A stretch of 64,000 bases of DNA from Candidatus Omnitrophota bacterium (lineage in GTDB: Bacteria; Omnitrophota; Gorgyraeia; Ghiorseimicrobiales; Ghiorseimicrobiaceae). The DNA is taken from NCBI GenBank assembly GCA_030681595.1, contig JAUXSB010000014.1, positions 23,942 to 87,941 of the forward strand, given 5' to 3'. A program made the translations under genes and the position numbers. Positions 41,358-46,385 of this stretch are shown in pieces (the first letter of the stretch is position 1; each line of letters starts with the position of its first letter). Under the pieces are notes generated by a model that was not told where the DNA came from, did not search any database, and saw nothing but the letters and a program-made list of their open reading frames with translations.

Positions 41358-42668
41358 TTAAACTACGGATTCCTTGTTTGAATAAAGGCTGTCCAGCGGG
41401 CTTTTTGGGGCATTACTCATATTCCGCAGGACATGCGTATAAATCATCGTTGTTTCAACATTATTATGGCCCAAAAGCTCCTGCACTTCCCTGATGTTCA
41501 CCCCATTCATCAAAAGATGAGTAGCAAAACTGTGCCGCAAAGTATGAACAGAAACGCGTTTAACAATACCTGCCGCGTCTGCCGCTTTTTTAACTGCCTG
41601 CTGGATAGATTTATCGCTTATATGGTGGCGGCGCGCCTTGCCGCTTCTTGGGTCAACGGAAAGGTTAGGCGAAGGAAAAACATATTGCCAACGCCAATCT
41701 TTCGCGGCATTAGGATATTTGCGCGAAAGCGCGTCCGGTAAATATACCTCGCCATAGCCGGCTTTTAGGTCTTTTTCACGCAACTCTTTAACCCTCTCAA
41801 GATGAAGGCATAAATCATTTTTAATTTTATCAGGAAGCATAGTAGTCCTGTCTTTATCCTGTTTAGCCGCGCGGATAAATATTGTATTTGAGCTAAAATC
41901 AATATCCTGAACCCGCAAGCGCGCAAGCTCCATCAACCGAAGGCCTGAACCATAAAGTAACTGCATAATAAGCCGCCCTTTGCCTTCTATGTGCCTGAAT
42001 AATGCTTCAACTTCCCCTATTGTCAAAACCGTAGGCACTTTTGACCCGCGTTTTGCCCTGACCGCCTTATCCAAATCCTTGAGTTCAACCTCAAGCACCT
42101 CACGGAATAAAAATAAAAGCGCGTTAAACGCCTGATTCTGCGTGGAAGACGAAACCCGCCTTTGGATAGCCAAATAACTTAAGAAATTTCTCACGTCTTC
42201 TGAACCTAGCCTACCATCTTGGGCGCCCTTTTTCTTTACCTCTTCAATATAAGCGTAAAAACGCTTTGCCCAATCAGTGTATGAACGTTCTGTCTTGTAA
42301 GAATAATGCCTAAGCCGTATTGCCTCCCGCATTTTATTTATAATTTCTGAAATCGGCAGGGAAACTTTTTGAGGATTCAATAAATTTTCCTGGCGGGCAT
42401 CCGCGTTTTTTGACAAAAATTGCCCGGAATATAACTTTAGCGCTTCCTCTGCCTGTTTTATCTGCCAATCAGCAAACTCGCCCTGCGCCGCGAGACATAT
42501 CAAAAATTTCCTGATAAGCAAATCCCGGCTCTCTTCTCCGCTATTATTCGCAAAACCAAGGAATTTGCTTACCCAGCGCGCATAATATGAAACGCTCTTT
42601 TCAGGCACAAGTTTACGAGAAGTCAAAAACTCCTGAAATTCTGGCAAAACGTCACTAAGCATCTGCAA
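41358..42668 (-). CDS. intI: Integron integrase (IntI-type tyrosine recombinase); true start possibly near 42362
   Basis: C-terminal [12 protein letters not shown]...[16 protein letters not shown] catalytic box preceded by [40 protein letters not shown], which parallels the IntI-specific extra segment of IntI1 that XerC/D lack; divergent from downstream cassettes. Confidence 0.8.
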
Positions 42669-42843
42669 AACCCTCTCTTTACCAAAATTCCCTTCTTAAA
42701 CGAACTTCGTATTTTCCGTTATTATATGGTAATTGCGAAAATTAGCAAGATGATTTTGATTTTTTTATTGTTTACCCCTAGAAAATATGCTATATTTAAC
42801 TGAACAATAAAAAATTACGAACTTCGTCTATTAATTGTTAGGC
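42669..42843. promoter_or_regulatory. Candidate attI region with core site GTTAGGC (42837..42843) and two copies of the palindrome acgaacttcgt
   Basis: Canonical GTTRRRY core between intI start and first cassette ORF; the 11-bp palindrome occurs at about 42703 and 42817. Confidence 0.4.
42768..42796 (+). promoter_or_regulatory. Candidate cassette promoter (TTGTTT, 17-bp spacer, TATATT)
   Basis: Hexamer match by eye in AT-rich DNA; weak evidence. Confidence 0.2.
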
Positions 42844-42899
42844 GAAATAAAATTAATAGACATCAAAACTAGAAACCCATGTGAGTTTAAGTTAATCTT

Positions 42900-43505
42900 A
42901 TGTATAAAAAATTATTAATCATTTCTATTGGTATCTGTGCAATAGTTAGTAGTTTGTTTGGTTTAGTAAAATTAATGGAAAAAACCAGTGAAAGTTATTA
43001 TCTTAAAATTCCTTATTCATCATATTGTGCAGAATTTCAATCTGGCGGAATTAATTGTGATATGATAGGCGGCAATCTTATATTCGAAAGCGATTCGGAA
43101 AGACCCCTCATTTATTTTAAAAGAGAATTAACAAATAACTCTTTTGAAATTGATCTAAAAAATAAAATAATTCAGCAGATGCAGCATGCTTTTAATAACG
43201 ATTCGGCTCCAGCTTACTCCCCTTGCAACCCCGATCGAAAATATTGTGCTGCCTATAAAACAAAAGGTATTCTGAAAAAAGGAGGCGGAATCGGATTTTG
43301 GGTATCGCCTGATAAATTGTTTGGGTTAGAAATTTTCGAAATAAAAAGTATGCAAACAAAAAAGACATTCTTTCGAAAAATGAATCTGAAGTTCGGTGGT
43401 GCTTCCCCCACACTAAAATATGATACCTTCTGGAGTGAGGATGGTAAATATGTAGTTATCTTTGATAATTCAAATAATCTAATAATTCAAAGAATAAAAG
43501 AATAA
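42900..43505 (+). CDS. Integron cassette ORF: secreted or membrane-anchored protein of unknown function with four cysteines
   Basis: N-terminal hydrophobic signal or anchor (LLIISIGICAIVSSLFGLV); no recognisable family. Confidence 0.5.
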   Translation: MYKKLLIISIGICAIVSSLFGLVKLMEKTSESYYLKIPYSSYCAEFQSGGINCDMIGGNLIFESDSERPLIYFKRELTNNSFEIDLKNKIIQQMQHAFNNDSAPAYSPCNPDRKYCAAYKTKGILKKGGGIGFWVSPDKLFGLEIFEIKSMQTKKTFFRKMNLKFGGASPTLKYDTFWSEDGKYVVIFDNSNNLIIQRIKE

Positions 43506-43580: not shown

Positions 43581-43655
43581 GTCTAACAACGCACTGCACC
43601 TGACCTTTCCCGCCGCTAAAGCGGCGCTCAAGGCAGGTGAGTTTGAATGTTATAT
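43581..43655 (+). other. attC-like recombination site 1
   Basis: Starts GTCTAAC (fits RYYYAAC), internal palindromes (cacctgacc...ggcaggtg; cgccgct aaa gcggcg), ends GTTATAT. Confidence 0.4.
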
Positions 43656-44159
43656 AACAAAATGGATAATTTAGACTATGATGCACAGCAGAGGAGAGAA
43701 GTATTTGCCATGTATGGTTTAGCCATGTATCATGCCCAATGTTTTGAAAAAAGCTTGGTTATATTGGTATCCGTTGCATTCAACAAAGAATATTTCAAGA
43801 GTAATTACGAAAAAAGAGAGGAACTTTTTTCTGATACTTTCAAAAAAACAGCCGGACAACTAGTAGAAAAACTTAAAGTGATGGTAAAAGTCCCGAATAC
43901 CCTGGAAAATGACTTATCCAAAGCGGTAAAAAAAAGAAATTGGTTGGCACATGATTATTTTTGGGGAAATTCTTATGATATTTTGACAACAGCCGGAAGA
44001 GAGAGAAAACTAAATGAACTGCATGAAATTTCAGAATATTTTTCAAAGATGGATGAAAGAATGACAAAAATATATCAACGTGTATTCGATAAAATTGGAT
44101 TGACTGAAGATAAAGTTATGGCATATTTAGAGAAAATGGTAGATAAACACAAAATATAA
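43647..44159 (+). CDS. Integron cassette ORF: possible HEPN-motif protein (R-x4-H); true start may be the second ATG at 43662
   Basis: RNWLAH fits the HEPN Rx4-6H motif; otherwise unrecognised; the first five codons overlap the attC right end. Confidence 0.45.
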   Translation: MLYNKMDNLDYDAQQRREVFAMYGLAMYHAQCFEKSLVILVSVAFNKEYFKSNYEKREELFSDTFKKTAGQLVEKLKVMVKVPNTLENDLSKAVKKRNWLAHDYFWGNSYDILTTAGRERKLNELHEISEYFSKMDERMTKIYQRVFDKIGLTEDKVMAYLEKMVDKHKI

Positions 44160-44215
44160 CAAATCAATCCAGCGGAATTTGCCTCTGGCAAATCCGCTGA
44201 TTTCTGGTGTTATGC
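44154..44215 (+). other. attC-like recombination site 2
   Basis: ataacaaatcaatccagcggaatttgcc / ggcaaatccgctgatttctggtgttatgc imperfect inverted repeat, ATAAC...GTTAT cores. Confidence 0.45.
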
Positions 44216-44222
44216 TAAAAAA

Positions 44223-45146
44223 ATGGAAGAAAAGCAAATGTTGTTATCATGGCTCATAATCTCTATTCTGATTACATCCTATTCTACCATTCGGAATGTC
44301 GAATTCGTGGAAGCGAATACTGAATCCATGAGAAGTGATAATTCAGACATTTTCTACGAAAAAAGAGGAAACGGGAAACAAAAGATGCTTTTAATTCACG
44401 GATACGGAGCAACGAGAATGAGCTTTTATGATATAGCCCCGTTTCTAGAAAATCAGTATGAACTGTATTTAATCGACTTAATTGGTTTCGGAGATTCGCG
44501 GGCTCCATTTGGTTGGGAATACAAACCACAAAATCAAGCAGAGGCGGTATACCGATTCATAAAGAAAAATGAACTAACTGACATTACAGTTGTGGGTCAC
44601 TCATATGGCGGAATGGTGGTACTGTTACTCCTTCAAAAGATCGAAAAAGCGAAGGAATATTTTTTAATCAGGAATGCAGTTTTGATCGACCCTGCAGCTT
44701 ATCCGCAGAGGTTCCCTTTTTTTGTTCAAATTCCCAAAATACCTATTGTTAATACGATCTTTCTTTCGCTAATACCTGCAAGAAAACAAGCGCAATACAC
44801 TTTAAAGCGTCTGTTTTATGATGACAAAAAGGTCACAGATGAAAGAATCGAAAGATATGCATCCTATTACAGAAAAGGAACTCATAGAAAGGCGATAATT
44901 GAGTCTGCCAAGAATATGATTCCTAAAAATATTGATCAATTAGAAGAGGATATCAAAACAATTTCGATCCGAACGCTTATAATATGGGGTAGTAAAGATC
45001 CTGTCATACCAAAGTCAAACATAGATAGACTCCATAAAGAGCTGAAAAATTCAAATCTTATGGTGATTGAAGACGCAGGCCATATACCCCATGAAGAAAA
45101 GCCAGAGGAAACATATAATGCATTTATTGAGTTTATTCGAGATTAG
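44223..45146 (+). CDS. Integron cassette ORF: alpha/beta-fold hydrolase with N-terminal TM anchor
   Basis: HGYG oxyanion region, GHSYGG nucleophile elbow, downstream Asp and His (DAGHIPH). Confidence 0.75.
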   Translation: MEEKQMLLSWLIISILITSYSTIRNVEFVEANTESMRSDNSDIFYEKRGNGKQKMLLIHGYGATRMSFYDIAPFLENQYELYLIDLIGFGDSRAPFGWEYKPQNQAEAVYRFIKKNELTDITVVGHSYGGMVVLLLLQKIEKAKEYFLIRNAVLIDPAAYPQRFPFFVQIPKIPIVNTIFLSLIPARKQAQYTLKRLFYDDKKVTDERIERYASYYRKGTHRKAIIESAKNMIPKNIDQLEEDIKTISIRTLIIWGSKDPVIPKSNIDRLHKELKNSNLMVIEDAGHIPHEEKPEETYNAFIEFIRD

Positions 45147-45157
45147 GTTTCATTAGT

Positions 45158-45997
45158 ATGAAATTCATTCTTGAGGTTCTTAATATATTCTGGTCCATTT
45201 GCTTAGCGATTATTGCAATAGTTGTATCGTTTCTTATCCCTAAGTCTAAAAAAAGAAAAGAAGTAGGAGTAGGACTCTCAATTTTTTCTTTTACGATTAA
45301 TTTTAGAAAAGATACCTATATAAGGGGGCTTCTGGTTCTTCTAGGAATTTCCTTTCTAGGATTTACATTTGTACGTGATTACTCTTCTTTTTTTCCAAAA
45401 CGGGTGTCATTTGAGATTTATTATGACTCAAATGGGTTGAAACAGGCCATAGAAAGTATAAGGCCGTTATTGGAAGATGGCATGAAGATTTCTCCAGATT
45501 GGGAAAACAAAAGGAGGGCATATTTCCAAGAACTTGATAAAATTATTAAGTCAAAAATACCGCAGTATGAACTATTCTTTTCATATGATCATGTTGAAGA
45601 TTATTTAGTGAGCAAAGGTAAAGCAGAACATGTTGTTGAGTTGTTTAGATTTTGGCAGCAATATAAGATCACCAAGGTCAATGGCTTGGTTCAACATCGG
45701 CTTCACCCGCCTGATATGAATCCGATTGAACTCGAAACCAGGTATAATCTTTTAGATAGACCGAAAAACTTAGTTTTACCCACTATAAGAGATTTCTTCA
45801 GGGGCAGAAAACTTGTTGCACCAACAATGGCACAATCTCTCATAATTCACACAGATAAGGTTTATGAGGCCGAAATTGTAGGACTTACGGAGGTCAGGTT
45901 TTTTCCGTATAATACTTTGGAAAAGACGATATTTTGCTTTAAATCGGAAGCGGGATTAGTTCCTTTTTCGTATACATTTTATAAAGAAGAAGAATAA
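45158..45997 (+). CDS. Integron cassette ORF: 2-TM membrane protein of unknown function (same cassette as the hydrolase)
   Basis: Two N-terminal hydrophobic helices; only 11 bp after the hydrolase stop with no intervening attC. Confidence 0.5.
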   Translation: MKFILEVLNIFWSICLAIIAIVVSFLIPKSKKRKEVGVGLSIFSFTINFRKDTYIRGLLVLLGISFLGFTFVRDYSSFFPKRVSFEIYYDSNGLKQAIESIRPLLEDGMKISPDWENKRRAYFQELDKIIKSKIPQYELFFSYDHVEDYLVSKGKAEHVVELFRFWQQYKITKVNGLVQHRLHPPDMNPIELETRYNLLDRPKNLVLPTIRDFFRGRKLVAPTMAQSLIIHTDKVYEAEIVGLTEVRFFPYNTLEKTIFCFKSEAGLVPFSYTFYKEEE

Positions 45998-46002
45998 AAA
46001 AA

Positions 46003-46059
46003 GCATAACAACTCGCTGCAGCCGACCGCCTACGCGGCGGCTGAGCTCAATCGTTATAG
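46003..46059 (+). other. attC-like recombination site 3
   Basis: gcataacaactcgctgcagccgaccgcc / ggcggctgagctcaatcgttatagg imperfect inverted repeat with ATAAC...GTTAT cores. Confidence 0.45.
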
Positions 46060-46150
46060 GAAAAAATAAAAATGATCAGGCCAAAAAAACACAAGATTTG
46101 GAGTGAGAACTTGAATCTATAATATAACCGGTAAAAAAGAGAGGAAAACT

Positions 46151-46243
46151 ATGAGCAAAAGTCATGATGCTAAAAAAGATGTAAAAAAGAAAGCAGCAAA
46201 AACGCTAAAAGAGAAACGGCTTGATAAAAAAGCGAAAAAATAG
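46151..46243 (+). CDS. Small Lys-rich ORF (30 aa, MSKSHDAKKDVKKKAAKTLKEKRLDKKAKK), possible mini-cassette
   Basis: Good Shine-Dalgarno (agaggaaaact) 5 nt upstream of ATG; followed by a GTTAGGC core at 46270..46276. Below the ORF-track size cutoff. Confidence 0.25.
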   Translation: MSKSHDAKKDVKKKAAKTLKEKRLDKKAKK

Positions 46244-46385
46244 ACAAATAAAAATAATCGAAATTTGGTGTTAGGCCATGAATCTGAAATATAGGATATT
46301 AATAAGGTCAGCCCCTAAATTTTCCTGCCTTTTTCCCAGAGCGAAGCGGCGGAAAAAAATAGGTGAAGGTATACCTTGCCCCTGC

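Follow-up and report, generated by a model that had tools for sequence, protein, structure and literature searches.

A single-gene integron cassette from Candidatus Omnitrophota encoding a probable divergent HEPN-type ribonuclease

The second gene cassette of an integron array in a Candidatus Omnitrophota bacterium encodes a small protein that is, on balance, best explained as a stand-alone, latent HEPN-type ribonuclease (RNase) effector. The array lies in a stretch of DNA of 64,000 nucleotides, here called the window (assembly GCA_030681595.1, contig JAUXSB010000014.1, positions 23,942 to 87,941 of the forward strand; all coordinates below count from the first letter of the window). That there is a real gene inside a real cassette is close to certain. 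Membership of the protein in the HEPN superfamily is likely rather than demonstrated, an RNase activity is slightly favoured, and the chances of an anti-phage or conflict role are evenly balanced. What is new here is the assignment of a large unannotated family; HEPN cassettes and single-gene HEPN defences are both already known.

The conserved motif and the predicted fold

The first-pass annotation of this DNA had drawn attention to the residues RNWLAH (codons 43935-43952) as a fit to the Rx4-6H motif of HEPN RNases. The motif is present, but the match alone does not rise above chance: the pattern R.{4,6}H is found in 32 of the 66 six-frame open reading frames (ORFs) of at least 100 amino acids (aa) in the window, and in 44% of shuffles of the cassette 2 protein (1% for the stricter RNxxxH). 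By itself the match is therefore weak evidence, and its weight comes from conservation.

Conservation was assessed in 104 diverse representatives of the family, mostly 27-44% identical to the window protein. G19, E29, R92, N93 and F100 (residue names follow the 165-aa protein) are invariant in all 104, H97 is kept in 103, position 99 is Y in 79 and F in 25, and Q26 is Q in 100 and N in 4; T63, G65, L95 (101 of 104) and G112 are nearly invariant. The conserved residues are also invariant in the 11 most distant members assembled (24-34% identity), which include phage, E. coli prophage, Vibrio and Halomonas cassette, Bacteroidota plasmid and archaeal proteins. Thus, the conservation of the Arg/His pair in homologs, on which the earlier proposal had been made to depend, extends to very distant relatives. 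E29 is a candidate for the acidic residue that assists catalysis. A reading of the letters AHD as the mark of an HD domain was rejected, because D98 is not conserved (N in 29, H in 24, D in 16, R in 12).

The same conservation bears on whether this could be a catalytically inactive HEPN-fold protein that serves to bind RNA or nucleotides. HEPN domains without activity are known (PMC3710099), and the cassette 2 gene is tolerated on its own; however, the inactive domains have typically lost the R or the H, whereas here R, N and E are invariant and H is missing from a single relative. An inactive HEPN protein is, thus, very improbable.

HEPN domains are described as four-helix up-down bundles, often with inserts between helices 2 and 3, in which Rx4-6H closes core helix 3 and is followed by the loop to helix 4, a polar residue (N, D or H) directly follows the Arg, and the site is augmented by an acidic residue further upstream, which is typically located in helix 2 (PMC3710099). 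Given the family alignment, AlphaFold2 returns an all-helical model (mean predicted local distance difference test, pLDDT, 91.6; predicted template modelling score, pTM, 0.81), which bears out the earlier description of a largely helical-looking protein. The eight helices are at 11-44, 47-51, 54-65, 69-79, 84-107, 109-113, 115-149 and 154-169 (positions in the model follow the 170-aa numbering of a longer in-frame ORF, described below). The motif, at 97-105, ends helix 84-107 and is followed by a break (108-114) and then by the long helix 115-149, so that in the model it stands where core helix 3 ends. The sequence also supplies a conserved Rx4-6H, with a spacing of x4, and, in N93, the polar residue after the Arg.

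Profile comparisons point faintly in the same direction. The window protein gives sub-threshold HepT-like matches on the motif region (Pfam E 0.082, NCBIfam E 0.011); across 41 members, the most recurrent sub-threshold Pfam family is HepT-like (10 members, best E 0.0027), and DUF4145, a family of the HEPN clan, is matched by 3 of the 41 (best E 0.003, below the gathering score). Matches to SNaCT1 (E 0.025), to a dGTPase C-terminal region (1.2e-4) and to Drt1b (0.0096) were dismissed as confined to single members or to non-diagnostic helices. The PDB, searched by sequence and by profile with the window protein, two family profiles and a Vibrio homolog, yielded chance matches only. For a direct comparison with HepT by hhalign, 120 genuine PF01934 proteins were gathered with a DUF86-like bait, and 60 of these were aligned. 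The family profile gave a 43-column local match (P 0.002, score 24.4), in which RNwLaH-YF lies on RDkLIHEYF; the maximum score from 40 column shuffles was 15.8.

Several results weigh against a HEPN-type defence RNase. No HEPN family match reaches its curated threshold (13.1 versus 23.5 bits for HepT-like; 15.6 versus 60 for the NCBIfam HepT model). The hhalign probability for HepT is only 13%; a published survey of the superfamily gives HHpred probabilities of 75-98% (PMC3710099). When blocks of 8 columns were shuffled, hhalign scores reached 23.6-28.3 in 3 of 40 cases; since the match passes the column shuffles but fails the block shuffles, it is evidence at the level of the motif only, and not of extended colinear similarity. 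Foldseek searches of the PDB and BFVD found nothing at E <= 0.001. The invariant acidic residue, E29, is in the first long helix, and not in helix 2 as in typical HEPN domains. Lastly, about one third of the genomic contexts considered in the next section (L001-L006, L011, L012) contain neither defence nor mobile genes.

Perhaps, then, this is a helical protein outside the HEPN superfamily, in which the motif block would be convergent or structural (for binding of a ligand, nucleotide or protein), and which would act as a regulator, an anti-defence factor or an accessory protein of a phage or other mobile genetic element. Every HEPN fold and profile test is below significance, the phage-encoded family members are without known function, and counter-defence and accessory genes also occur in hotspots and cassette arrays. 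However, the invariant residues are the exact HEPN catalytic set at the structural position described for HEPN domains, the two most recurrent weak Pfam families both belong to the HEPN clan, and a binding motif rarely stays unchanged among bacterial, archaeal and phage proteins of 24-34% identity. A non-HEPN protein is, for these reasons, considered rather unlikely, and the HEPN-type RNase is preferred.

The family, its neighbourhoods and the question of a partner

The window protein has no significant match in Pfam, NCBIfam or PADLOC. Among the library models, only phrog_12893 is matched significantly (E 1.5e-8, with residues 13-126 aligned to positions 6-117 of the 139 in the profile), and all eight family members tested match it. 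A large-database search returned 53 relatives, all without a Pfam domain; a second search, with a broad profile, returned only entries named 'hypothetical protein' (from Omnitrophota, Nitrospiraceae, Desulfobulbaceae and the archaeal Methanoperedens); and an exhaustive profile search returned 2,913 cluster representatives at E <= 1e-3, of which 1,495 have E <= 1e-10. Two larger forms of the protein exist. One, P0168 (331 aa), holds two tandem copies of the domain, each with its RNxLAH motif preserved, and has the best phrog_12893 score among the eight members scanned (6.8e-17); it resembles the presumed dimer in a covalently joined form, and is consistent with a dimeric unit. The other, of about 280 aa (P0089, P0096, P0101, P0111, P0145, P0190, P0196 and others), has an extra conserved C-terminal domain of about 115 aa, with the motifs WTLCDxGL, LPAxxxPKPK and WxYxIxLSxG and no match in Pfam, which may serve the attached HEPN-like domain as a sensor or as a regulatory module.

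About 25 genomic contexts of family members were inspected by hand. In several of them, the relative is itself in a cassette array. On a Vibrio alginolyticus plasmid, it stands between 125-nt array repeats on both sides, in an array that includes cassettes for an Abi protein, RelE/RelB, an HTH-PIN protein, a restriction endonuclease and a cytidine deaminase. The Halomonas homolog has attC-like hairpins on both sides, the Photobacterium gene begins 16 nt past an array repeat, the V. cincinnatiensis contig with a homolog is a cassette array, and the copies at L009 and L015 are adjoined by attC-like sites. Elsewhere, the neighbours are defence genes. On Vibrio plasmids, the homolog directly follows qatA-D (intact in V. 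parahaemolyticus pHLA, L016); in Emticicia, it directly follows AbiLi (PADLOC 2.6e-101) and RloB, with KwaB nearby; one homolog adjoins a XhoI restriction-modification system and BrnT/BrnA; another lies between a pAgo-associated Helical-REase (6e-26) and PDC-S32 (1.2e-10); and the Streptomyces homolog is downstream of a protein with DUF4238, a validated defence domain (Rousset et al., PMC9122126). Taken over these contexts, the association of the family with defence is suggestive. Thus, the defence effector proposed by the first-pass annotation gains contextual support from defence and mobile neighbourhoods, but remains a candidate.

Two of the plasmid copies appear to be altered. The copy downstream of qatD on V. 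campbellii pVCGX2 (L021 5980-6282) has been reduced to 100 aa by the insertion of a Tn3-family transposase. On a Streptomyces canus plasmid (L020 5001-5511), the tblastn match is in two pieces and begins 154 nt upstream of the annotated 118-aa coding sequence, which suggests that this copy is frameshifted or that its start was mis-called.

The family is also present in phages and prophages. Gp38 of Salmonella phage PSP3 (139 aa) matches phrog_12893 over its full length (E 1.6e-83) and carries RNYLAHEF; in tblastn searches of phage records, neither the window protein nor P0168 found a match, and only a more central member, P0054, reached PSP3. The gene for gp38 follows gpA and tumAB at the right genome end, i.e., in the cos-proximal gpA-gpQ region, which is a defence hotspot of P2-like phages and in P2 carries old and tin (PMC9122126). 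In E. coli, a homolog was found in 31 of 5,426 complete genomes. In the P2-like prophage of strain CD306, it is the final one of the genes that separate the replication endonuclease from the portal. This hotspot (L030 2098-5420) contains four genes, for hypothetical proteins of 380 aa and 158 aa, a DUF2971 protein and the family member, an arrangement that is listed in Table S5A of Rousset et al.; the E. coli protein, WP_001576649, is 'hypothetical' in that hotspot table and is outside the systems that the text describes as tested (PMC9122126). Directly upstream of gp38 in PSP3 is gp37 (L029 3507-3716; 69 aa, phrog_11386), which was not seen beside other family members and is probably not a partner of gp38.

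In fact, no neighbour is conserved across the contexts inspected. Neighbours differ from one annotated record to the next, and when the flanking proteins of 10-14 loci from metagenomes and metagenome-assembled genomes (MAGs) were compared all-against-all by BLAST and phmmer, no two loci proved similar. A nucleotidyltransferase or antitoxin-like gene was found neither in cassette 2 nor in its neighbours, as had been noted before, and no nucleotidyltransferase stands beside the homologs in the contexts inspected. Two apparent exceptions were rejected: an alpha/beta hydrolase as a shared downstream partner (in the window and at L006) is a coincidence, because the two hydrolases are dissimilar and the one in the window lies beyond attC2; and the small ORFs downstream of the gene at L001 and L005 are unrelated to each other. 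Without a conserved neighbour, the family travels as a single gene; and because a cassette moves independently, its protein must be tolerable alone, which speaks for an enzyme that is latent or regulated and against a classic toxin dependent on a linked antidote.

These observations bear on the options that the first-pass annotation had offered. A solo effector is supported by the lack of any conserved neighbour and by a 560-bp cassette that has no room for a second gene, whereas pairing with a neighbouring cassette finds no support. The same applies to the toxin of a toxin-antitoxin (TA) pair, whether HepT/MntA-like (type VII) or with an RNA or small-protein antitoxin, whose antidote would be elsewhere or have been missed. 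The Rx4HxY form of the motif is that of HepT, TA cassettes are abundant in integron arrays, and the gene has long, apparently non-coding flanks at L012, L005 and L006. Against this stand the one-gene, independently moving cassette, the contexts without a nucleotidyltransferase or other conserved neighbour, and the small ORFs of L001 and L005, with no kinship between them. Furthermore, the Tyr of the HepT Rx4HxY motif, which is adenylylated by MntA (PMC7641770), is a Tyr in the window protein but a Phe in 25 of the 104 relatives. A TA toxin is therefore judged improbable, and the solo, latent RNase is retained.

The gene and its integron setting

The features of the locus are collected in the table. 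The placement of the gene in an integron cassette, made in the first-pass annotation, is confirmed by the integrase upstream and by attC hairpins on both sides of the gene. The attC sites were sought with a simple calibrated detector, the background of which is 2 matches per 117 kb of strand elsewhere in the window; it recovered all three, each with AAC...GTT cores around a bulged, imperfect hairpin. Folded as bottom-strand DNA, attC1 has a free energy of -19.6 kcal/mol (z -4.6) and attC2 of -14.7 kcal/mol (z -5.2), and for neither was any of 200 shuffles equally stable. A scan of the array for promoters and terminators gave nothing above shuffles (promoter-like sites: 19 versus 13.9 +/- 3.8). 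Cassette 2 thus reads as a promoterless single unit, bounded by attC sites and downstream of intI and attI, as is expected of an integron gene cassette.

Features of the integron and of the cassette 2 gene in the window
Feature	Position	Strand	Description
IntI integron integrase	41358..42668	-	Divergent from the cassette array; TIGR02249 E 6.5e-128 (residues 109-428), Pfam Phage_integrase 1.1e-36
attI-like crossover box	42838..42844	+	GTTAGGC (GTTRRRY); putative, as read from the sequence; between intI and the first cassette ORF; opens cassette 1
Cassette 1 ORF	42900..43505	+	201 aa, hydrophobic N-terminus; family-less
attC1	43581..43655	+	R'' GTCTAAC; imperfect hairpin with a bulged base; R' G|TTATAT, crossover 43649|43650
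Cassette 2	43650..44209	+	Mobile unit of 560 bp with one gene, from TT of the attC1 R' to G of the attC2 R'; boundaries from attC cores
Cassette 2 gene	43662..44159	+	165 aa + stop; unannotated phrog_12893-like family; probable divergent HEPN-type RNase
N-terminal conserved block	43716..43748	+	First long helix; G19 43716-18, Q26 43737-39, E29 43746-48
Candidate catalytic motif	43935..43961	+	R92-N-W-L-A-H97-D-Y99-F100 (R-N-x-L-x-H-x-[YF]-F); C-terminal end of helix 84-107 (170-aa numbering)
attC2	44154..44215	+	R'' ATATAAC overlaps stop codon 44157-44159; hairpin with one bulged base; R' G|TTATGC
Cassette 3	44223..45997 (cassette within 44216-46059)	+	Two ORFs; unrelated to cassette 2
attC3	46003..46059	+	Closes cassette 3; detector match; -16.1 kcal/mol; single bulged hairpin between CATAAC and GTTATAG

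The ORF to which the gene had first been assigned, 43647-44159 on the + strand (170 aa), exists, but its first ATG is outside cassette 2, because the attC1 crossover (43649|43650) leaves this codon on the side of the preceding site. The cassette-borne start is the ATG at 43662, which agrees with the N-termini of homologs and with the NCBI annotation of an identical protein (P0001, from a Candidatus Omnitrophota MAG; 100% identical, annotated as 165 aa). Within the stem of attC1, a Shine-Dalgarno-like AGGTG (43635-43639) precedes the ATG at 43647 by 7 nt; none is obvious before the ATG at 43662. Possibly, translation might start in the adjacent attC at this position of the array, adding five residues (MLYNK).

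The neighbouring cassettes offer no partner. The cassette 1 ORF has no match in scans of Pfam, NCBIfam and PADLOC, a comparison of flanking proteins found no relative of it beside any homolog of the cassette 2 protein, and it is not a partner of cassette 2. Cassette 3 encodes an alpha/beta hydrolase with a hydrophobic N-terminus (44223-45146; Abhydrolase_1 E 2.6e-26) and a 279-aa protein without annotation (45158-45997); neither is similar to proteins of the genes downstream of the homologs. The two ORFs are separated by 11 nt, with no attC between them, i.e., this is a two-gene cassette. Past attC3, the region 46060-46274 contains AGAGGA followed by a lysine-rich ORF of 30 aa (46151-46243), together with a canonical GTTAGGC box (46268-46274), and may be a very small fourth cassette; the detector found no attC for it. 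The integrase ORF has 436 aa when read from the first possible TTG, with about 108 extra N-terminal residues before the TIGR02249 match, and Pfam marks two Phage_int_SAM_4 stretches in it, which suggests that the protein has an extended N-terminus or a duplicated SAM-like domain, or that the start was called too far upstream.

Proposed action and comparison with known systems

How might such a protein act? R92, N93 and H97, located where the third core helix ends, most likely form, together with Q26 and E29 of the first helix, a metal-independent endoribonuclease site, and by analogy with HEPN enzymes this site would be completed across the homodimer interface between two protomers. From what is known of HEPN domains (PMC3710099), H97 would be the general base acting on the 2'-OH, R92 and N93 would bind the phosphate with assistance from E29, and cleavage of the RNA, independent of metal, would leave a 2',3'-cyclic phosphate. 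The protein would act alone, and would be latent or harmless in the uninfected cell until a trigger, e.g., phage infection, led it, probably, to cut RNA (tRNA, rRNA or mRNA) and thereby to arrest growth. In the integron, it would be a promoterless, independently mobile unit, with expression set by its position in the array. We infer the HEPN fold, the RNase chemistry, the dimerisation, the trigger and the anti-phage role alike.

A wider proposal, possible but doubtful, is that the family constitutes an uncatalogued, minimal (140-165 aa), single-protein anti-phage system, in which one HEPN-like RNase, free of a partner, would both sense infection and cut RNA. Integron cassettes, plasmids and P2-like prophages would have carried it to hosts that range from archaea to E. 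coli. It would have escaped Pfam, NCBIfam and PADLOC, as well as the defence-hotspot screens, in which it is already listed as 'hypothetical'. If the preferred reading as a HEPN-type RNase were confirmed, a fold, an active site and a role could be predicted for about 3,000 'hypothetical' sequence clusters, and the integron- and prophage-borne defences would include one more very small single-gene system. Since members are found in tractable hosts (WP_001576649 in E. coli P2-like prophages, the single-gene Vibrio cassettes, and PSP3 gp38), the prediction is directly testable. The general view of HEPN effectors and integron cassettes would be unchanged, as descriptions of HEPN cassettes date back to 2013, and the validation of single-gene HEPN-like cassettes as defences to 2024-2025.

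Of the known systems, HepT (DUF86, PF01934; Shewanella oneidensis SO_3166, PDB 5yep) is, like the cassette 2 protein, small and all-helical, and its motif, RNIAVHDY, has the same form as the RNWLAHDY found here. The likeness is limited to the motif: the two align on the motif helix, with scores far under the family thresholds, and the cassette 2 protein has its own N-terminal block (G19, Q26, E29) and about 45 extra C-terminal residues. HepT systems have MntA as a partner, whereas the cassette 2 family is without MntA in any context examined. On these grounds, and with a Phe in place of the adenylylated Tyr in a quarter of the family, the cassette 2 protein is not a HepT/MntA toxin.

Several stand-alone HEPN proteins resemble it in their proposed logic. 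AbiD/AbiF, AbiV and ApeA are latent stand-alone HEPN RNases that are activated on infection and are carried by mobile elements and prophages. Tha is a further stand-alone HEPN abortive-infection protein of this kind (PMC11087260). The cassette 2 protein is much smaller than these, and is without a separate sensor domain; the models Abi_2, HEPN_AbiV and HEPN_Apea and those of PADLOC gave no sequence match to the window protein.

Closer in their genetic setting are the HEPN proteins of other integrons. The 'Integron cassette HEPN' family (Anantharaman et al. 2013, PMC3710099; PDB 3jrt, from gammaproteobacterial cassettes) likewise has a HEPN-type domain as a single-gene cassette, and was proposed to act as an RNase in stress or conflict; no likeness to 3jrt, in sequence or in structure, was found. 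Esos of V. cholerae, which is associated with growth arrest or death, and the AbiU2-type cassette of V. mimicus are single-gene, HEPN-like integron cassettes that have been shown experimentally to protect against phages. As in cassette 2, there is one small HEPN-like gene per cassette, with no partner; Esos is likened here by description only, and the Pfam model HEPN_AbiU2 does not match the window protein.

The true homologs are phrog_12893, PSP3 gp38 and WP_001576649 (E 1.5e-8 to 1.6e-83), in which every invariant residue is kept. The PSP3-type phage form, of 139 aa, is without the last helix, and occupies the gpA-gpQ defence hotspot instead of an integron.

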